NCBI GenBank assembly: GCA_018266755.1
Contig: JAFDZW010000001.1
Coordinates: forward strand, 85,635-149,634
Reading direction: 5' to 3'
Source: Bacteroidota bacterium
Lineage (GTDB): Bacteria; Bacteroidota; Ignavibacteria; Palsa-1295
Length of the DNA: 64,000 bases
This document shows, one piece after another, positions 43,099 to 51,105 of the stretch; the stretch's first letter is position 1; each line of letters starts with the position of its first letter. Made by a program: the position numbers and the translations under genes. The notes under the pieces were generated by a model, which worked only from the letters and a program-made list of their open reading frames with translations, had not been told where the DNA came from and did not search any database.

Positions 43099-44838
43099 GT
43101 GAATAGTCTCCGTTCCAGCCATATCCATCCGCTGACCTCTCCGCTGCCGATCGTGCTCGGGGTGACGGGTCATCGCGATCTGCGTACACAGGATATTCCG
43201 CAGCTCAAGCATAGCGTCCAGACCATCTTCCGTGAGCTGCTGGCAAACTACCCCTCAACTCCGCTGACGATGCTCTCATCACTTGCCGAGGGAGCGGATC
43301 GACTCGTCGCCGATGTGGCGCTCGAGATGGGTATCGATCTCGTTTGTCCGTTGCCGTTGCCCCCGGAATTATATCGAAGCGATTTTGTGACCGAAGAATC
43401 GCGTGCAGAGTTCGACCGGTTGCTTCGCGCAGCGAAGAGCTGGTTCACCCTGCCGCTCGTCGAAGGAGTCACCAATGAGGATATTAAGACGCATGGTCGC
43501 CCGCGTGATCTGCAATATGCACAGGTCGGTGCATATCACGCACAGCATAGTCAGATACTGATCGCGCTCTGGGACGGGCTCGTGCTCGACAGCGTCGGTG
43601 GGACGGGGAAGGTCGTACACTACAAGCTCGACGGAGTGCCGAAGATATTCGGGAAGACTCAAAGTCCGCTCGATCCAGTCGAGACCGGTCCGGTTTATCA
43701 TGTGCTTACCCCGCGCGAGTCGAACGCTGACATCAAGGATGCGCCATTCACGGTAAAAAAGTATTTCCCTCGTGGTTATGGTGAAGATCAGGAAGCGCGG
43801 ACTGCATTCGACCGCATTTTCCAGCAAATAGATCGTTTCAATTCCGATACCGAGCGATATACGCTTCATCTGCAGCAACACAAACCGCAAAGCGAAGCGT
43901 GGCTGCTGGGTGAGCAATCGAAAGAAGAACTATCCGAAGAACTGCGTTCGATCGTCGATCACTACAGTACTGCCGATACACTAGCAACCTACTTCCAACG
44001 ATACACCCGCAGAGCGTTCGTGGGGATATTCTCGTTCGTGTTCTGTGCAGCAGCTTTCTTCGATCTCTACGCGCACCTCTTTCACGACGAACCGCTGGTA
44101 TTGGCAGGATACCTGTGTGCATTGATGCTTGCGTTTATTTGGTACGTGTTCGCAAAACGGCGTCACTATCAGACGAAGTATCTCGATTATCGCGCGCTTG
44201 CCGAAGGATTGCGCGTGCAGTTCTTCTGGAGAGTTGCCGGGCTGAGGCAGACCGCCGGCGACTACTACATTCGAAAGCAAAAGAGCGAGCTCGACTGGAT
44301 CCGTTTTGCCATGCGGACGGCAGCAATCCCGCTCAACGCCGATTCCGATGCGATGGACCCGGGCGATACCGCAAAACTGCGAACGCGACTCGAGCGAGTT
44401 TTGCATTCGTGGGTCGAGGATCAGGCGAAATACTATCCAAAGGCGCTAAAGCGTGATCATCACCGGCTTCACCGTTTGGAGCGGACGATCAACATATTGT
44501 TCTACGTAGGCGTCATACTTGCGGTTATTCAACTCTTGCTTGAGATACCGCACGAACTCAAAGATTATGTAGTGGTCGCAACCGGGCTGGCCCCCATTAC
44601 TGCTGCATTACTCGGTGGCTATATCGAACGCAATGCACTGATCGGACATATTAAACAGTACGAACGGATGGGGGTGATGTTCGTTCAGGCAAAAGAGTAT
44701 CTGGTTGCATTACTGAAGGATCGCCGCTATGCCGAAGCATCGGATTTTATCTTCGAACTCGGTACCGAAGCGCTTGGTGAAAGCGGCGACTGGATGCTTT
44801 TGCATCGTGAGCGTCCGCTTGAAGTGCCGAAGGGATGA
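43099..44838 (+). CDS. SLOG-domain (LOG/DprA/YpsA-like Rossmann nucleotide-sensor) fused to a multi-pass SLATT-like transmembrane effector region
   Basis: N-terminal ~200 aa: IVLGVTGHRDL (strand-1 plus Gly loop), LSSLAEGADRLVADVALEMGIDLVCPLPLP and ILIALWDG...GGTGKVV reproduce the SLOG/LOG core layout. Residues ~300-579 contain two pairs of transmembrane helices (FVGIFSFVFCAAAFFDLYAHLF / LVLAGYLCALMLAFIWYVFA, and INILFYVGVILAVIQLLLEI / VVVATGLAPITAALLGGYIE), each followed by long helices, as in SLATT 2-TM modules. No signal peptide. Confidence 0.5.
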   Translation: MNSLRSSHIHPLTSPLPIVLGVTGHRDLRTQDIPQLKHSVQTIFRELLANYPSTPLTMLSSLAEGADRLVADVALEMGIDLVCPLPLPPELYRSDFVTEESRAEFDRLLRAAKSWFTLPLVEGVTNEDIKTHGRPRDLQYAQVGAYHAQHSQILIALWDGLVLDSVGGTGKVVHYKLDGVPKIFGKTQSPLDPVETGPVYHVLTPRESNADIKDAPFTVKKYFPRGYGEDQEARTAFDRIFQQIDRFNSDTERYTLHLQQHKPQSEAWLLGEQSKEELSEELRSIVDHYSTADTLATYFQRYTRRAFVGIFSFVFCAAAFFDLYAHLFHDEPLVLAGYLCALMLAFIWYVFAKRRHYQTKYLDYRALAEGLRVQFFWRVAGLRQTAGDYYIRKQKSELDWIRFAMRTAAIPLNADSDAMDPGDTAKLRTRLERVLHSWVEDQAKYYPKALKRDHHRLHRLERTINILFYVGVILAVIQLLLEIPHELKDYVVVATGLAPITAALLGGYIERNALIGHIKQYERMGVMFVQAKEYLVALLKDRRYAEASDFIFELGTEALGESGDWMLLHRERPLEVPKG

Positions 44839-44845
44839 TCCGTAG

Positions 44846-45958
44846 TTAACGGCCGGTGCAACGCCGGTATCGGTCCATCGCTGCATCATAGAGCGCACGA
44901 ACGGATTCATGGTGTTTTACTTGGGCTTTAACCCGTTCTTCGGCGCTTGCAATCCGAGGCTTGAGTTTGTCCGTGTCATAGACGTCCGCTCGTGCTTCGG
45001 CCTCGAGAAGCTCCTTGCGCAAGCGTTCGAGCTGCGCGTAATCCTGCCAGTAGGATTCTTCGATCCGCATCAACGAATCGGAGCGATTAGTGACCGAGAG
45101 CAACAGGCGCAAACATTCTTCTTGCGATGGTAATGCAATGAGCGTATTCGGCTCTGCGAATCGCTCCGGCATATTAATCGGCGAACCGTCAGGATCTTCC
45201 GCCTGCACACTCCACACGAAGTCACCACCTTGCGACGGCAGCCGAAACTCCGCCGGCCACATCAGTTGTGTAACATTCGTAACCACCCGTTCGAAAAACG
45301 AGCGGTTGTTAAGGATGGCCTGTTTTGGATGCTGGTTCGGCAATAACTCGACGACTTTTAGGCGATAGACTACGGCCGACTGTGGGGTAGGAACGATCGG
45401 TGTCCAGGAGAAAAGAGTGCTTGTCTCCAGACCCGACGTGATGGTCGCTGCATTGGCTGGTTGCAACAACTGAGGCAGTGAGTATCGAGTCAGAAAGAAC
45501 GATCGGCATTCGAGCGGCGAGATCGTCTCGCGGGTATCTGCAGCCACGAGATGGACGCAGAGCTCATAGTTTCCTTCGGGAAGCATCCCGGTACGAAGTG
45601 TCGTCGTGCTTGCGTCGCCTTTGAACGTCAGGGCATTGGACGGGAATAGATCACCGCCATAGTATGTGCTTTGTCCCGGTGTGATCGACAGGACAGGCAT
45701 CGATTCGGTTCGTGTCGAAGCAACTTCGTTTCCATTGAGTGTAAGCGATGCGACGATACGTGCATCGACGTTTTTATTGGTTGTATTTGTGATAAGAAGC
45801 GAGGCAATCTCGCGACGACTTTGCCAGTCGGTTAACCGTAACGAGGGATGCGGAGAAATACTCAGGTGTATCTGCATTCCTTGCCCGTGGATATCGGCTG
45901 TCTTGACAAGCAAAGCCAAAAAGAATACACTAATGATGAAGAGCGGTGACCTCGCCAT
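44846..45958 (-). CDS. Secreted hypothetical protein with C-terminal coiled-coil; last gene of the ECF-CHAT operon
   Basis: Internal start MARSPLFIISVFFLALLVKTADIHGQG (ATG at 45958, 2-3 nt from the CHAT gene stop). Beta-rich body. C-terminal 70 aa are heptad-like (LERLRKELLEAEARADVYDTDKLKPRIASAEERVKAQVKHHESV). Confidence 0.45.
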   Translation of the reverse strand: MARSPLFIISVFFLALLVKTADIHGQGMQIHLSISPHPSLRLTDWQSRREIASLLITNTTNKNVDARIVASLTLNGNEVASTRTESMPVLSITPGQSTYYGGDLFPSNALTFKGDASTTTLRTGMLPEGNYELCVHLVAADTRETISPLECRSFFLTRYSLPQLLQPANAATITSGLETSTLFSWTPIVPTPQSAVVYRLKVVELLPNQHPKQAILNNRSFFERVVTNVTQLMWPAEFRLPSQGGDFVWSVQAEDPDGSPINMPERFAEPNTLIALPSQEECLRLLLSVTNRSDSLMRIEESYWQDYAQLERLRKELLEAEARADVYDTDKLKPRIASAEERVKAQVKHHESVRALYDAAMDRYRRCTGR

Positions 45959-46063
45959 GTTCTTTAAACGATCTGTGAATGGATGCCGTGACACCTCAGG
46001 GATCGCCGCCGCGGATCCAATGTGTGATCGAGAAGCCATCATATCGGTCGTTCGTATCATGGT

Positions 46064-48580
46064 TCAATATCCGATCAGTTCGAACCCTGCCCAATACAGA
46101 GGTTCGTCGTTGCCCATTCGTTTGTGCACGACAGAGCGCATCTTCAACTGCGCGGCACGCAGCGCCGCAGGTTTCGAGTCGCCTTGCAGCAATCGTTTAT
46201 AGAAAATCGTCATCAACTCTGCCGTTTCGCGATCCGGGATTCGCCAGAGGCTCATCAGAACGTTGCGTGCACCGGCTGTGCGAAGGGCCCGAGGAAACCC
46301 GAATACACCTTCGCCCGGTTCGATCGTCCCTCTGCCACTCTCACAGGCAGAGAGTGTGACGAGATCGGTCCCGTACAGATCCAAATACATCGCTTCAAGA
46401 CCGCTGACAACGCCATCGTTCGAGGGGTCATCGCTGCCGCGTCGAAGTGTTTTGTTTGCGCCGCTGAGGTAGAGTGCACATTCGAGCAGATCGTCGGTGA
46501 TCGTATTGCCTTCGGAGCTATCCGGTCGAAATGTCGCATGTGTTGCGATATGAACGATCGAGCGATCACGGAGCCGGTCGAGATTCTGTTCACTCGCGTC
46601 GGAACCAAGAAATGATTGCACATCCCAATGAGCACCCCGAAAAATCGCGCCGATGTTCGATGCCTCTGATTTCGTTGCATTGAGCTCTTGCAGCATGCCT
46701 TTCTCCCGTGCGGTCGGCAGCGCTGATACGACAGAGGTACGGACATTTCCATACGCGGGGTCGGCAAAGATCGTGATGGACTGTGTCCGTTGTGACGGAA
46801 CATCACGGGCTACGTCGCCAGTATTTGTAAGCGTGGCGATCTCATAGCGATCGATGACTTGTGTGCGATCGTCGATGGGTAGCATCGGAAGTGACAACTG
46901 CGAATAGATCCCATCGGGTGAGATGTACACTGTGCCGACATGCGGTAATAATTCGGCGATCGGAGCCCATATGAGTTTGCTTACAATCTTCAGCGCCTCG
47001 CGATGTTTGGTGCCAGGCACAAGTGCCAGATAATATGCACGGAGCATAGCGGGGTCTTCTAACGTCGTTGCATCTCCGATCACGGTGCTCTGCGGAGCAA
47101 TACTATCGTGAGGCGAGACCACGAATGCGGCGTAGGTAGCGGTGTCGGTCTGCCGTTCGCCGTCGAAGTATGGAAACCGTGCGATCTCGATTGCAACGGA
47201 CTCCGGTTGCAATCGGTCGCGGACGTTGTTCCACGAGACGCGCGGGAATTGAAGCGCCTTGCCGGCTCGTGCGGAGCGTCTGACAAGTTGTTTCTGAAGT
47301 CGCTCGATCGCGACATCGAGACTGTCGCTGCCGAAGAGCGGTTTTGCAATGAGCAGACTGTCGCCACTGCGTAAGGCCGAGCGCCGTGCAGCAAGGATGG
47401 CGATGTGTGCTATGAGTGAACTTGCAGTCGTGTCTCCCGAACGAGAGAGCGATTCCCGATTGGCGGCAAGGCTGGTGACCGCCGCTGCTTTCTCGAACAA
47501 CAACCAATCGTACGCAACCGCCGATCCTGCCGGATAGATGGAACCGGTGCGAACCGCAGTACTGAACACGCGACCGCTCGTGCGATATATTTCACGGAGA
47601 AATTCTAATCGCTCCCGCTCGCTCGTGTAGCTGAAGTTGACCTGCGCCGCGTCCTCATAGATCGAGAGTGCGCGGTTGTACGCTGCAAATGCGGCATTGG
47701 GACGATTCTGTAACTCGCAAATGCTGCCGTCGACCAGTTGCGAGAGTGCACGTGTTCCGTAGGATCGGTCGCCGGTTCGCATGAGATCGTTCTCGCAGGC
47801 GCGGATATCCGGTTCTGCGGAATCGGGGTCAGATGCGATCGCTCTGGTTCGAGCTCGTGCAAGACGAATGGAGGCTCGGAGTTCGAGTCGAGGTTCGTTT
47901 GCAGCGGAGAGGAGTTCTAATGCCGTCGAATAGATCCGCTCCGCATTGTGATACCGTCCTTTCTCGAATGCAATATCTCCGGCAAACCGTTGGATGCGAA
48001 TTGATTCGGTGCTACCGTTCCCAAATCCCGACATGATTGTCGCCGAAAGGCCGCTGGCAAGGTTTTCGGCTTCTTGTGCATTTCCGCTGCGAAGCGCATA
48101 CTCGGCCGAAGCAAGCGTGGCAAGGGCTGTGAACTTGTTGTCGGCGCCAAGTTCGACACGATATGCACTCACTTGTTCATTCGTTGCTCGAACAGCGTCG
48201 CGGTAGCGTCCTTGTTCCGAATATAGCCGGGCGAGTCTGCTCCACGCAGAGGCGACAATAGGATGGTGTGCGGAATAGAGGCGTGTGTTCGCGGCGATTG
48301 CACGTTCCAGCGCTTCTTCGGCTTCGCCGTATTCTGCTTGCTCGAGCGTGAACACCCCAAGCATGTACTCGCAGTATGCAGCAACGGAGTCGTTGGGTTT
48401 GGATGAATGGTGATCCGCTAAGATCGAGCGTACGTAGTATTCACCATTGTGAAGGTCGGCAGCATACAGAAGGGAGTCGCAATGACGTGTTACAACGGCA
48501 AGCGCGGGTGGTCCTTGTGCCTGAGTCGGAAGGGGAGTCGAAACGAAGAACAGAAATAATAGGAGTACTCGATCGATCAC
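46064..48580 (-). CDS. Secreted TPR-repeat CHAT-domain (caspase-like) protease
   Basis: Signal peptide MIDRVLLLFLFFVSTPLPTQAQG. About 350 aa of TPR-like helical repeats. C-terminal CHAT domain with the His/Cys dyad context IVHIATHATF...LVTLSACESG and the terminal YWAGFELIGY. Confidence 0.7.
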   Translation of the reverse strand: MIDRVLLLFLFFVSTPLPTQAQGPPALAVVTRHCDSLLYAADLHNGEYYVRSILADHHSSKPNDSVAAYCEYMLGVFTLEQAEYGEAEEALERAIAANTRLYSAHHPIVASAWSRLARLYSEQGRYRDAVRATNEQVSAYRVELGADNKFTALATLASAEYALRSGNAQEAENLASGLSATIMSGFGNGSTESIRIQRFAGDIAFEKGRYHNAERIYSTALELLSAANEPRLELRASIRLARARTRAIASDPDSAEPDIRACENDLMRTGDRSYGTRALSQLVDGSICELQNRPNAAFAAYNRALSIYEDAAQVNFSYTSERERLEFLREIYRTSGRVFSTAVRTGSIYPAGSAVAYDWLLFEKAAAVTSLAANRESLSRSGDTTASSLIAHIAILAARRSALRSGDSLLIAKPLFGSDSLDVAIERLQKQLVRRSARAGKALQFPRVSWNNVRDRLQPESVAIEIARFPYFDGERQTDTATYAAFVVSPHDSIAPQSTVIGDATTLEDPAMLRAYYLALVPGTKHREALKIVSKLIWAPIAELLPHVGTVYISPDGIYSQLSLPMLPIDDRTQVIDRYEIATLTNTGDVARDVPSQRTQSITIFADPAYGNVRTSVVSALPTAREKGMLQELNATKSEASNIGAIFRGAHWDVQSFLGSDASEQNLDRLRDRSIVHIATHATFRPDSSEGNTITDDLLECALYLSGANKTLRRGSDDPSNDGVVSGLEAMYLDLYGTDLVTLSACESGRGTIEPGEGVFGFPRALRTAGARNVLMSLWRIPDRETAELMTIFYKRLLQGDSKPAALRAAQLKMRSVVHKRMGNDEPLYWAGFELIGY

Positions 48581-49419
48581 GGAACAACGATGCTTTGCGC
48601 ATCGGAGGACGGACCCTTGGCACGTCCCTTTGTAGCGGTTACACGAACACTGACGGAATGTCCGCTAGGGAGTGAGCCGATCCGGGCATACGCATGCGCA
48701 ACCTGGGCAACAGGATGAAAATGTTGATCATTCTCGGTCTTGATCTCGACGATATAGCTAAGCGCACCCTCGACCGGTTGCCACGTCAGACGGATCGAAC
48801 GCGGAGTTCCGGGCTCGACGGTAAGCTCGTTCGGCCGTTGGATCTGACCGGTGAGCGAACGCCGCAAGCGGGCGAGATCTTCCGGAGAGTTCGACCGGGA
48901 CGATCGAGCCTGATCGTCTGCACCGCGAAATTGGGTTGACGATGGCGTACTCGTCGTTGTCGATTGATCGGTCGGTGTCGAAACGGGGGCAGGGGGGGCA
49001 GTGATACTCTGATCGGAAACCGGTGTCGTCAGCGGAGTGGTAGCGGACCACGGGCGCCATGCGAGTAAGGCAACGACAACCACGGCTGTTGCTCCGACGA
49101 GGCGGTATGTGGTCTGCGATGCAAAGATCGAGGTAAGTCGGGCAAAAAAGCCGCTCTCGCTCTTTATGACGACGGAAGCTGTTGGAGCAACGGCAAACCG
49201 CTGGTATGCCATTGCAATAGCCGAATCGCTTGGGTGGCCGACATCGGCGAGATATCCGTAGAGGATTGAGAGCGAATGAGATTGCTCTCGAAACGAATCG
49301 CCGAGTTCGGGGTATGCGCGCTCATAAGAGGTCAGCACCTCGGCTGCATTTGACCCTTCAAGCATAGCGGCAACGAAGGAGTCACTAAAACGATTGATAA
49401 TGTGCTCAGACTCTCTCAT
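48577..49419 (-). CDS. Single-pass membrane protein with periplasmic fibronectin-III domain; positional anti-sigma factor candidate
   Basis: Cytoplasmic ~115 aa, TM LVGATAVVVVALLAW, Pro/Thr-rich linker, FN3-like LTVEPGTPRSIRLTWQPVEGALSYIVEI...VSVRVTA. ATGA overlap with the sigma gene stop and 4-nt overlap with the CHAT gene. No classical zinc anti-sigma motif was seen. Confidence 0.45.
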   Translation of the reverse strand: MRESEHIINRFSDSFVAAMLEGSNAAEVLTSYERAYPELGDSFREQSHSLSILYGYLADVGHPSDSAIAMAYQRFAVAPTASVVIKSESGFFARLTSIFASQTTYRLVGATAVVVVALLAWRPWSATTPLTTPVSDQSITAPPAPVSTPTDQSTTTSTPSSTQFRGADDQARSSRSNSPEDLARLRRSLTGQIQRPNELTVEPGTPRSIRLTWQPVEGALSYIVEIKTENDQHFHPVAQVAHAYARIGSLPSGHSVSVRVTATKGRAKGPSSDAQSIVVP

Positions 49420-50213
49420 ATAAATAACCCCAGTGATGCAATGACGAAGAAGATCCCTTTGCCGACGAGTGCAGAGTAAAATGCTTCCAGTGCTTCGTCC
49501 TCTGAACTGACTTGGTCGGCCGTGACATCCTCCCGAAGATATAAGCGTCTGAGCACGGCATTTTGTGACGCATCCAGTGTGGAAAGCACGCTACGGTGCT
49601 TGGAGATCAGTTTTTGGCGCAGCATCATAACGCCTCGCTTATGGATCTGGCGGGCATTTGCAACGCTAATTCCATTGTTTTCAGCGATTTCCTCGTACTC
49701 GAGCCCAGAAACGCGCTCTTCGATCACTTTCCGGTACTTTTCATCGAGCTCGGAGAGGATTCGGACAGTCTCCATCCCGCCGAGTATAATGTCGGAAATA
49801 TCAGCCTGTTTGTCTGCCGGTTGGAGCCGAGCTTCCCAATTTGCGGCGGCGTTCTCTTCGGTGGGTGAGTCATCGAAGCTGATAAATACGCGATCCTTGC
49901 GATTGCGGCGGCGGTTGTGGTCCAGCGCAGTATGCTCGGCCACCACATGGACGAACCCAAAGAGTCTGCCTTGTTCAATTACACGTTCTGCCTTCTCTGG
50001 ATTTCGGAATGTCGCCAGAAGCTTTTCCAGCGTCTCCATCATGATATCGTTCAGTTCGTCTTCTCCAAACGATGTGCGCCAGTGTTTTTTGAGCGACGCG
50101 TAGACAAATTTATAGAGCAGCGAAAACAGTCGTTCCTCGCAACGGCGATCACCCTGCGCAGTGCCCCGAACAAGTGGTTCTACGTTCGGCAGATCGTTTA
50201 CGGCAACGGACAT
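49416..50213 (-). CDS. ECF-type RNA polymerase sigma-70 factor with ~60-aa C-terminal extension
   Basis: Region 2 (LYKFVYASLKKHWRTSFGEDELNDIMMETLEKL) and region 4 helix-turn-helix (YEEIAENNGISVANARQIHKRGVMMLRQKL), then an extra C-terminal segment ending in the hydrophobic GIFFVIASLGLFI. Confidence 0.65.
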   Translation of the reverse strand: MSVAVNDLPNVEPLVRGTAQGDRRCEERLFSLLYKFVYASLKKHWRTSFGEDELNDIMMETLEKLLATFRNPEKAERVIEQGRLFGFVHVVAEHTALDHNRRRNRKDRVFISFDDSPTEENAAANWEARLQPADKQADISDIILGGMETVRILSELDEKYRKVIEERVSGLEYEEIAENNGISVANARQIHKRGVMMLRQKLISKHRSVLSTLDASQNAVLRRLYLREDVTADQVSSEDEALEAFYSALVGKGIFFVIASLGLFI

Positions 50214-50285
50214 TTCAGGGTTGTGTCAAGAAGTGGAGAAGTGTATAGTATTGTGTAATCACGCTCTCGAAGAGATGGCTCTGTC

Positions 50286-50360
<75 letters not shown>

Positions 50361-50565
50361 ATGGTGCACGATAATGCAATTATGCCTCCCTATGAAATCG
50401 AAATCGGTGAAAACAGTTTCATTCTTACACAAACACTTGCTGCAAAGCCCATGCCAGAGGGGCGTTTCGGAGTTTGGTACGAATATTGATTGATTCCTTT
50501 AATGAATGCAATGATGTATAGAGCGGCCGCGGCATCACGGCCGGATGGAGAGGAGAGATAGAACG

Positions 50566-51105
50566 ATGAAATTCACCCGAAGCATCAGAATGATCGCCCT
50601 AGCGCTCTTAGTCGCAGGGACCGCACACGCCCAACGATTTGTGGAATCGCCAAATGATTGGGTCACCAAGAATGTCCGCGAACACGGCTTGGATACAACG
50701 CGTCTCGAAATGCACGCGTCGTTCGCCCTCGATCCGATCAACGACACGATCGGGCTGATCTATCACGAACCCTATCCGGATTCCGTAATGCCGAAGACCG
50801 CCATCGAAGTCGCGGTGATCACTGTCCAGGCGGAAGAAGCGGACGAAGTAGTGGAAACGATCGAGAAAGAGGCCCGCAAGATCGGAGCGGATTGGATTAT
50901 CGGCTTCAACGAACCGCGTTTACATGTGATCCGCTATCATGGCGATGCCCGAGGGATCTACCGTTCGACGGCAACGCTCTATCGCGTGATCAACGATGAA
51001 TTGGTACCCGCATCCGACATCGCAGTAATCGACTGCGGCCCGAGTCACCTCAACGAATGCAAAGCTGTCTTGACATGGCTTGAGGACGAACACAAATCGA
51101 AGTGA
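50566..51105 (+). CDS. Secreted hypothetical protein
   Basis: Signal peptide MKFTRSIRMIALALLVAGTAHAQ (internal Met of ORF 50545-51105). 150-aa mature part with no recognised family. Confidence 0.4.
   Translation: MKFTRSIRMIALALLVAGTAHAQRFVESPNDWVTKNVREHGLDTTRLEMHASFALDPINDTIGLIYHEPYPDSVMPKTAIEVAVITVQAEEADEVVETIEKEARKIGADWIIGFNEPRLHVIRYHGDARGIYRSTATLYRVINDELVPASDIAVIDCGPSHLNECKAVLTWLEDEHKSK

Follow-up and report, generated by a model that had tools for sequence, protein, structure and literature searches.

The 64,000-nt stretch of the Bacteroidota bacterium contig JAFDZW010000001.1 analyzed here (the window) carries a compact cassette of four co-oriented minus-strand genes, predicted to encode a sigma factor of the extracytoplasmic function (ECF) type, a single-pass membrane protein with a fibronectin type III (FN3) domain, a secreted TPR-CHAT protease, and a second secreted protein. 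The open reading frames lie where the initial annotation had placed a four-gene operon, and their order is the same in all informative loci:

49416-50213, minus strand: ECF-type sigma factor gene, 265 aa (open reading frame call and profile matches)
48577-49419, minus strand: single-pass membrane FN3 protein gene, 280 aa, in the anti-sigma (+1) position (open reading frame call)
46064-48580, minus strand: TPR-CHAT protease gene, 838 aa, GTG start (open reading frame call and profile matches)
44846-46060, minus strand: fourth open reading frame, longest form (open reading frame call)
44846-45958, minus strand: fourth protein, 370 aa from its likely start M35 (NCBI start and ortholog alignments)

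The four genes are tightly linked and strictly co-conserved. In the window, the sigma/FN3 junction is an ATGA, in which the ATG of the membrane protein overlaps the sigma stop codon by 4 nt, and the FN3/CHAT junction is a GTGA, in which the GTG start of CHAT overlaps the membrane-protein stop codon, again by 4 nt. Such overlaps are limited to these two junctions, so that the chain initially described for the whole operon breaks at the fourth gene: its longest open reading frame begins 3 nt past the CHAT stop codon with no overlap, and its most likely start, M35 at 45958, leaves a 105-nt spacer. We favor M35 because it is the start called by NCBI (P0059, 370 aa), because ortholog alignments start there, and because a signal peptide follows. 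Across nine loci, the sigma/FN3 spacing was between -4 and +3 nt in eight (59 nt in the remaining one, L003), the FN3/CHAT GTGA overlap was kept in seven, and the CHAT/fourth-gene spacing ranged from 36 to 105 nt. Read from the sequences, these junctions support a conserved, translationally coupled operon.

Using the four proteins as tblastn queries, we found an identical four-gene order in L001, L003, L006, L009, L010, L011, L012 and L013, and the gene tables of two large JGI contigs showed the same arrangement. Shorter contigs each carried the expected partial gene set, every locus of sufficient length displayed the full order, and neither CHAT nor the fourth gene was lost in any locus compared. 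Because the order recurs in all informative loci and on the JGI contigs, with the partial contigs consistent, the arrangement is no chance association. Identity to the window proteins was 42–79% for the sigma factor, 32–55% for the fourth protein, 33–49% for CHAT and 28–39% for the membrane protein. In L003, the cassette is retained at 42% sigma identity between flanks that are unrelated on both sides.

The sequence family defined by the cassette is small and restricted to metagenome-assembled genomes (MAGs) of Kapabacteria. A search of 5.8 billion protein clusters returned 47 sigma homologs, and all named ones came from Candidatus Kapabacteria, Ignavibacteriota or Bacteroidota MAGs. Scanning one genome per GTDB species placed the family in ten species; eight of these records are labeled Kapaibacterium, Bacteroidota, Bacteroidetes or Ignavibacteriae, one duplicates L001, and one, L006, is labeled Alphaproteobacteria. 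The latter (CAYOJJ010000002.1, a 255-kb contig of an "uncultured Alphaproteobacteria bacterium") contains the cassette at 69% sigma identity and is probably mislabeled or misbinned.

The first gene product is assigned by profile matches as a predicted ECF (group IV) sigma-70 factor. Pfam Sigma70_ECF matched residues 11-202 with 24.9 bits (cut-off 21.1), and Sigma70_r4 (32.3 bits, cut-off 24.1), Sigma70_r4_2 (32.3, cut-off 25.7) and TIGR02937 (48.7, cut-off 42.9) were likewise positive. The Sigma70_r2 model gave no match, suggesting that region 2 of this sigma factor is divergent. The initial annotation had allowed that the protein might belong to a well-studied ECF group with a different type of anti-sigma factor and with no syntenic CHAT gene in relatives. 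CHAT is instead syntenic with sigma in all relatives, and no curated subfamily model fits the sigma factor: every NCBIfam model at the subfamily or equivalog level scored far under its cut-off (Sig70_bacteroi1, 37.6 versus 126.4; SigZ, 26 versus 212). A profile of the sigma family compared with the PDB retrieved no solved sigma factor at E <= 1e-3, DdvS included.

Two features beyond those in the initial annotation are a C-terminal extension of the sigma factor and a promoter-like motif upstream of its gene. The extension was delineated in an alignment of sigma orthologs:

49419-49601, minus strand: sigma C-terminal extension, residues 205-265

It adds ~60 residues past sigma-4 in all orthologs and consists of an SQxxLLKRLY helix, a variable acidic linker, an EExALxAFYxAL helix and a hydrophobic C-terminus of 10–15 residues. 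Residues S216, L221, R223-Y225, E238, A241, L242, F245 and Y246 are invariant. The hydrophobic tail (19-mer hydropathy 2.0) is present in 42 of the 47 sigma homologs. The tail-less homologs P0014, P0029, P0032, P0033 and P0037 (251-252 aa) end in ...FYAALMNSGRI, just before the point where the tail would begin. The extension could serve as a membrane tether, as a contact with the transmembrane (TM) helix of the partner protein, or as a regulatory extension.

The upstream motif is conserved in ten loci:

50223-50246, minus strand: 24-nt promoter-like element ATACACTTCTCCACTTCTTGACAC, consensus ATACAS-N4-5-CCCAC-N6-ACAC

Its ACA, CCAC.T and ACAC blocks are invariant in the ten loci, where the sequence on either side is unalignable, and it lies 6–34 nt from the sigma start codon. 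CCAC-N6-ACAC has a single occurrence in the 64-kb window and likewise one in each related locus, invariably at this place upstream of sigma; no further copies of the motif were found in the window or the related loci. Because its outer blocks are spaced roughly as ECF -35 and -10 elements, we regard the element as a candidate autoregulated ECF promoter. The invariant central CCCAC would be unusual for a spacer. A scan for sigma-70 promoters and terminators performed no better than on shuffled sequence. In that scan, with its overall shuffled-level yield, a hexamer pair with 9/12 matches (TTGAAC-18-TATGAT, 46038-46067, minus strand) lay at the CHAT/fourth-gene junction, and this pair could be an internal promoter.

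The second gene product was initially described as a single-pass membrane FN3 protein in the anti-sigma position, and its predicted organization agrees with that description:

49186-49419, minus strand: conserved cytoplasmic N-terminal domain, residues 1-78, candidate non-zinc anti-sigma domain
49048-49107, minus strand: TM helix YRLVGATAVVVVALLAWRPW, residues 105-124, from hydropathy, with invariant W121, P123 and W124
48835-49047, minus strand: periplasmic S/T/P-rich linker, residues 125-195, from the ortholog alignment, candidate site-1 cleavage region
48580-48834, minus strand: periplasmic FN3 domain, residues 196-280, from Pfam fn3 and the alignment

The N-terminal domain was modeled by AlphaFold2 as a bundle of three helices plus a fourth helix (pLDDT 83), and the ortholog alignment contains no conserved Cys or His and no zinc ligands, making it a candidate for a new, non-zinc anti-sigma-like domain family. 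Pfam fn3 matched residues 196-273 only marginally (26.0 bits versus a gathering cut-off of 25), and PF00041 is precomputed for several membrane-protein orthologs. Only two islands of the otherwise variable linker are conserved, [QS][FY]RG, in which R165 and G166 are invariant, and D(A/I)ARL(K/R), in which R184 and L185 are invariant; its role as the site-1 cleavage region is inference only. The protein ends in an invariant ...SIVVP. Orthologs are 28–39% identical, which makes this the fastest-evolving of the four genes; anti-sigma factors usually evolve fast. Together, these predictions support a membrane anti-sigma topology, in which a single TM helix joins a helical bundle in the cytoplasm to a domain in the periplasm. 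Of the features of class I anti-sigma factors, those of gene position and topology are present: a +1 gene coupled to sigma, a single TM helix after the N-terminal domain, and an extracytoplasmic C-terminal domain. The NCBI record (P0048, 262 aa) uses a start that drops 18 N-terminal residues (49366-49419, minus strand). These residues are conserved in all orthologs (invariant M1, I7, F11 and D13) and account for the greater part of predicted helix 1, and the 262-aa start is probably wrong, the 280-aa start overlapping the sigma stop codon being the better call.

The third gene product is assigned by profile and alignment as a CHAT domain peptidase (PF12770, clan CD), predicted to be extracytoplasmic and to retain an intact His/Cys dyad. 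The CHAT domain scored 182 bits in Pfam (cut-off 24, E 2.3e-53) over residues 530-837 (46070-46993), and the TPR region, at about residues 38-330, scored 68 bits with TPR_12 (E 6.6e-19). As initially proposed, both this protein and the last protein of the operon have N-terminal signal-peptide-like sequences; that of CHAT is encoded at 48515-48580 (minus strand), and signal peptides are found in all of its orthologs. The predicted catalytic residues are invariant in nine orthologs:

46538-46540, minus strand: codon of His681 (HIATH), predicted catalytic histidine
46343-46345, minus strand: codon of Cys746 (LSACESG), predicted catalytic cysteine

When a profile of the Kapabacteria CHAT domain was compared with all PDB sequences, the sole CHAT chain retrieved was 8ROT_B (E 4e-5), which is DdvA, a transmembrane anti-sigma factor of M. 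xanthus whose ~900-residue periplasmic TPR-CHAT part contains a His/Cys dyad (PMC11506125). The catalytic Cys segments align (LvtlsaCesG with DdvA LVVLAACEGG, C907); the His681 segment aligned weakly with that of DdvA H862, in a non-significant stretch. No Csx29 chain was matched at E <= 10.

A metagenome scan with the CHAT-domain profile recovered 79 loci with more distant relatives (30–37% identity), mostly secreted TPR-CHAT proteins of 900–1450 aa. An N-terminal hydrophobic core was present in 51 of the 59 complete relatives by a crude test. Secretion, which had been noted as an exception for a CHAT protein, is by this measure the rule in the subfamily. Two of these distant loci contain co-directional triads. 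L087 (547-5682) encodes an ECF sigma factor, a zf-HC2 anti-sigma factor with a TM helix and DUF4384, and a secreted TPR-CHAT protein; L089 (3667-8601) encodes an ECF sigma factor, a TM/TPR protein and a secreted TPR-CHAT protein; neither has a homolog of the fourth protein. ECF sigma genes on the opposite strand were seen upstream of CHAT in two further loci, adjacent in L069 and ~2.5 kb away in L068. Judged from gene content, the split triad arose more than once, in L087 with a bona fide anti-sigma factor in the middle. The Kapabacteria have it as a fixed arrangement to which a fourth gene is added.

The fourth protein was initially taken to be mainly coiled coil; the AlphaFold2 model (pLDDT 83) instead places a pair of beta-sandwich (Ig/FN3-like) domains behind the signal peptide and a long antiparallel helical hairpin at the C-terminus. 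Two conserved Cys pairs (134/151 and 282/367) are consistent with an oxidizing compartment. No Pfam or NCBIfam family was matched, the sole hit being a sub-threshold TANFOR, and fold searches returned nothing more specific than generic matches to tandem Ig/FN3-like and coiled-coil structures. Four distantly related proteins of ~600 aa (P0071-P0074) match part of it, with 26–35% identity over 26–72% of its length. In one of these relatives, a C-terminal sorting domain of the type IX secretion system (T9SS; Por_Secre_tail, 23 bits) hints at use of the module on the cell surface elsewhere.

The surroundings of the cassette comprise the following features:

50286-50360, minus strand: tRNA-Gly(CCC), called by ARAGORN
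43099-44838, plus strand: convergent 579-aa SLATT-like neighbor
50545-51105, plus strand: signal-peptide-bearing 186-aa protein without a family assignment, divergent from the tRNA-Gly/sigma unit

The operon does begin beside a tRNA-Gly, which lies 72 nt upstream of the sigma ATG in the same orientation. This tRNA is the syntenic upstream neighbor in all close relatives, and its 3' end was seen upstream of sigma in L001 and L005-L011/L013. It may be co-transcribed with the cassette and is not a functional part of the module. A mobile island inserted at the tRNA was considered and rejected, as both flanks consist of housekeeping genes that are syntenic in relatives. The flanking genes include those for dUTPase, FBPase, tRNAs, queuosine biosynthesis, LptD, TilS and FtsH, and the GC content is uniform at 0.51–0.58. 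The context of the cassette is that of a vertically inherited housekeeping or core-genome region, not of a defense or mobile island.

At its other end, the cassette stops 7 nt from the stop codon of the convergent 579-aa gene, confirming the adjacency in the initial annotation. The SLOG-SLATT assignment given there held less well, with only sub-threshold scores for SLATT_1, SLATT_3 and DUF4231 in Pfam and NCBIfam, and no PADLOC match. The gene stands next to the cassette in L001, L009, L012 and L013 (53–73% identical to that of the window) and is absent beside it in L003, L006 and both JGI contigs; it is therefore a neighbor by descent, not a component of the module. The gene for the 186-aa protein is syntenic in seven related loci at 48–56% identity, and not in L003; its product could be a regulon member or a mere conserved neighbor. 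For six local proteins, PADLOC returned no significant match and two marginal hits of 12–16 bits, HamB for the sigma factor and PDC-M71B for CHAT (E 6e-3 and 9e-4). Neither Pfam, NCBIfam nor PADLOC gave a Cas or Csx match for these six proteins, the rest of the 64-kb window having been left unannotated for cas genes and CRISPR arrays.

Our best reading of these data, drawn by analogy, is that the cassette would be a split, four-component variant of the DdvA-type ECF/TPR-CHAT switch, specific to the Kapabacteria lineage. We estimate a probability of roughly 85% that it encodes an ECF sigma/anti-sigma-type signaling module to which CHAT and the fourth protein are functionally linked. Proteins that are fused in one organism tend to cooperate where they occur separately. 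Since DdvA carries an anti-sigma domain, a TM helix and TPR-CHAT on one polypeptide, a functional link between CHAT and the membrane protein is suggested. The strongest indirect arguments are this fusion, the conserved GTGA coupling, and the independent triads in L087 and L089. An envelope or environment response is to be expected rather than phage defense, because the region is a vertically inherited, housekeeping one.

Within this framework, the cytoplasmic three-helix domain of the membrane protein would sequester the sigma factor, whose hydrophobic C-terminal tail may help to hold it at the membrane. The periplasmic TPR-CHAT protein, whose synthesis the GTGA overlap presumably keeps in a fixed ratio to that of the membrane protein, could dock on the FN3 domain and/or on the invariant C-terminus of the membrane protein. 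It would be kept inactive there; the fourth protein possibly does this, in the role of an inhibitor, a co-sensor or a decoy substrate. An envelope signal would then activate CHAT to clip the flexible linker between the TM helix and the FN3 domain. Since many clan-CD peptidases cleave after Arg, the invariant [FY]-R-G motif is a candidate cut site. The truncated membrane protein would become a substrate of an RseP-type site-2 protease, releasing the sigma factor to transcribe its own operon from the ATACAS-N4-5-CCCAC-N6-ACAC element and probably also genes elsewhere. This full regulated-proteolysis chain with CHAT as the site-1 protease, argued by analogy, is a tentative proposal that we place a little short of even odds. 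Its most detailed form is doubtful as a whole: a core-genome, non-defense, caspase-like cascade of Kapabacteria, in which a free periplasmic TPR-CHAT protease, gated by the beta-sandwich/hairpin partner, would cleave a new non-zinc anti-sigma factor in trans at [FY]RG and so release a sigma factor additionally tail-anchored through its own C-terminal extension, the whole forming a new ECF group whose periplasmic sensor has three parts.

The regulated-proteolysis circuit had already been suggested in the initial annotation. The same model is published for DdvA-DdvS, whose authors propose that signal-induced CHAT cuts the linker past the TM helix and that RseP then acts; RseP degrades DdvA after removal of TPR-CHAT (PMC11506125). 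The N-terminal domain of the membrane protein shows no sequence or profile link to known anti-sigma domains, and this is one of several findings that weigh against our interpretation. The cryptic anti-sigma domain anticipated in the 280-aa protein was looked for by profile searches and hhalign, and nothing emerged beyond orthologs. The N-terminal domain had no Pfam or NCBIfam match even at E 10, its profile matched no anti-sigma factor in the PDB, and against 1.84 billion representatives the profile recovered ~18 orthologs and nothing else. Aligned by hhalign, it showed a probability of 0.1% with the zf-HC2 anti-sigma factor of L087 and no similarity to the N-terminus of the middle protein of L089, and a fold search with its model gave unspecific matches. 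Co-directional ECF triads occurred at only 2 of the 42 non-orthologous CHAT loci with at least 2 kb of upstream sequence, which indicates that the ECF link does not extend to the CHAT subfamily at large. What we propose for the fourth protein is pure conjecture, and the sigma factor has a conserved C-terminal extension of its own, elsewhere usually an anti-sigma replacement. For DdvA itself, dyad mutants had no phenotype and autoproteolysis was not observed, leaving the CHAT step a hypothesis there too (PMC11506125). Finally, genes that follow sigma/anti-sigma pairs are often regulon cargo, and neighborhoods cannot separate regulators from targets (Casas-Pastor et al. 2021).

This last consideration leads to an explanation that we judge unlikely but of real weight, namely that the sigma factor and the membrane protein form an ordinary ECF sigma/anti-sigma pair, with CHAT and the fourth protein as co-transcribed envelope effectors and with another protease (DegS-, Prc- or CtpB-like) performing site-1 cleavage. 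In one example of such an arrangement, CHAT would act on surface or periplasmic proteins together with the fourth protein as its partner, substrate or inhibitor. Co-transcription fits cargo as well as regulators, and a spacer of 36–105 nt lies ahead of the fourth gene. Most close CHAT relatives are secreted and have no sigma gene nearby, which implies that sigma-independent roles exist, and the ~600-aa relatives of the fourth protein, one with a T9SS sorting domain, suggest a surface or secreted role. Yet the membrane-protein/CHAT GTGA overlap is conserved, DdvA unites exactly these two functions in one chain, the triad recurs with unrelated anti-sigma factors in L087 and L089, and CHAT and the fourth gene are never lost, all of which argue for more than cargo. 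It is also conceivable, although we consider it quite improbable, that the sigma factor is controlled mainly by its own C-terminal extension, with the tail as its anchor, either in the membrane or on the FN3 protein's TM helix, release occurring by removal of the tail, and the 280-aa protein serving as a co-sensor or scaffold. The conservation of the 60-residue extension, with its invariant residues and an end that is hydrophobic in 42 of the 47 homologs, would be explained in this way, as would the failure of the N-terminal domain of the 280-aa protein to match any known anti-sigma domain; elsewhere among ECF groups, a C-terminal extension usually takes the place of the anti-sigma factor, and membrane-spanning ones are predicted for ECF263. 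Against this, the uncharged stretch of 10–15 residues is short for a bilayer-spanning helix, the tail is absent from five homologs, and a membrane protein of anti-sigma topology is always found at +1.

Both experimentally studied ECF/TPR-CHAT systems are defense-linked, and a phage-defense or conflict module resembling DdvA-DdvS or type III-E CASP, acting with the SLATT-like membrane protein, has to be weighed as well. A SLATT-like convergent neighbor in the window, L001, L009, L012 and L013, and TIR-domain genes a few kb downstream on one JGI contig, would fit such a role. We rejected it as very improbable on the grounds that PADLOC found no significant match among the six proteins, that the SLATT scores are sub-threshold and the SLATT-like gene is not universally linked, being absent from L003, L006 and both JGI contigs, and that the syntenic housekeeping region has a uniform GC content. 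Moreover, conservation of the module throughout the lineage is vertical and not patchy, and an extracytoplasmic CHAT cannot partner a cytoplasmic Cas effector.

Taken as a signaling module, the cassette would extend the ECF-CHAT pairing, studied so far only in defense contexts and there in fused (DdvA) or cytoplasmic (type III-E CRISPR) form, to a vertically inherited, housekeeping-region module of a whole uncultured lineage. With protease and membrane regulator encoded separately, the role of CHAT as a trans-acting site-1 protease is directly testable with purified parts. The cassette also offers a sigma family that lies outside all curated subfamilies among the NCBIfam models and has an unusual hydrophobic C-terminal extension. 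Added to this are a candidate for a new family of anti-sigma domains and a candidate cognate promoter, the latter of potential interest for building orthogonal ECF switches. Should CHAT and the fourth protein prove to be cargo alone, the finding shrinks to one more lineage-specific ECF operon.

The view in the initial annotation that ECF-CHAT cassettes were uncharacterized is outdated in light of DdvA/DdvS (2018, 2024), Csx29-Csx30-CASP-sigma (PMC10028731) and ECF54 (PMC8999054). The closest parallel is DdvA-DdvS (PMC11506125, PMC6061681), with which the cassette shares an ECF sigma factor beside a single-pass membrane regulator whose small cytoplasmic domain has three helices (in the cassette, by prediction). 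Further common elements are a sizeable TPR-CHAT part in the periplasm that contains a His/Cys dyad, a flexible linker past the TM helix, and the proposed logic of CHAT as a signal-activated site-1 protease followed by RseP. Whereas DdvA fuses the anti-sigma domain, the TM helix and TPR-CHAT, the TPR-CHAT protein of the cassette is a separate secreted protein in all loci, and on the membrane protein an FN3 domain takes its place. At its N-terminus, this membrane protein lacks the CHCC zinc site and has no sequence similarity to zinc anti-sigma domains, and the sigma factor has a C-terminal extension and shows no similarity to DdvS at E <= 1e-3. The cassette further includes a fourth conserved secreted protein and lies in a housekeeping context rather than a CBASS/CRISPR island. 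DdvA-like proteins have been reported only in Myxococcota and one Comamonas (PMC11506125), whereas the cassette occurs in Kapabacteria, which are Bacteroidota/Ignavibacteriota-related.

In the type III-E system, an ECF-like sigma factor is bound and inhibited by Csx30, and the TPR-CHAT protease Csx29 cleaves this inhibitor (PMC10028731). Control of an ECF-like sigma factor by TPR-CHAT through an inhibitor is proven for this CASP/Craspase system (Cas7-11, Csx29, Csx30, Csx31 and CASP-sigma) and is the principle that we propose for the cassette as well. Craspase is, however, entirely cytoplasmic and activated by RNA-guided Cas7-11, whereas the CHAT protein of the cassette bears a signal peptide, and none of the cassette genes is a Cas gene or a homolog of Csx30/31. 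For ECF54, a neighboring CHAT protein has been proposed to regulate the sigma factor by proteolysis (PMC8999054; Casas-Pastor et al. 2021). A CHAT-domain gene in the sigma neighborhood is common to both; the ECF54 context additionally contains subtilase and carboxypeptidase genes. ECF54 is actinobacterial, has no putative anti-sigma factor, and the sigma factor itself is proposed to be under proteolytic control, whereas in the cassette a membrane protein of anti-sigma topology is always present and CHAT is predicted to be periplasmic; phylum and the anti-sigma-like gene thus argue against ECF54 membership.

Regulated intramembrane proteolysis of anti-sigma factors is classically represented by RseA/DegS/RseP with RseB and by RsiW/PrsW/RasP, the rpoE-rseA-rseB operon being the textbook case. 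The cassette resembles these systems in its order of sigma factor, putative membrane anti-sigma factor and candidate periplasmic modulators, and in the envisaged succession of site-1 and site-2 cleavage. Its periplasmic domains (FN3 and tandem beta-sandwich) are unrelated to those of RseA and RseB, and its candidate site-1 protease is a clan-CD CHAT peptidase encoded inside the operon, rather than a serine protease or metalloprotease encoded elsewhere.

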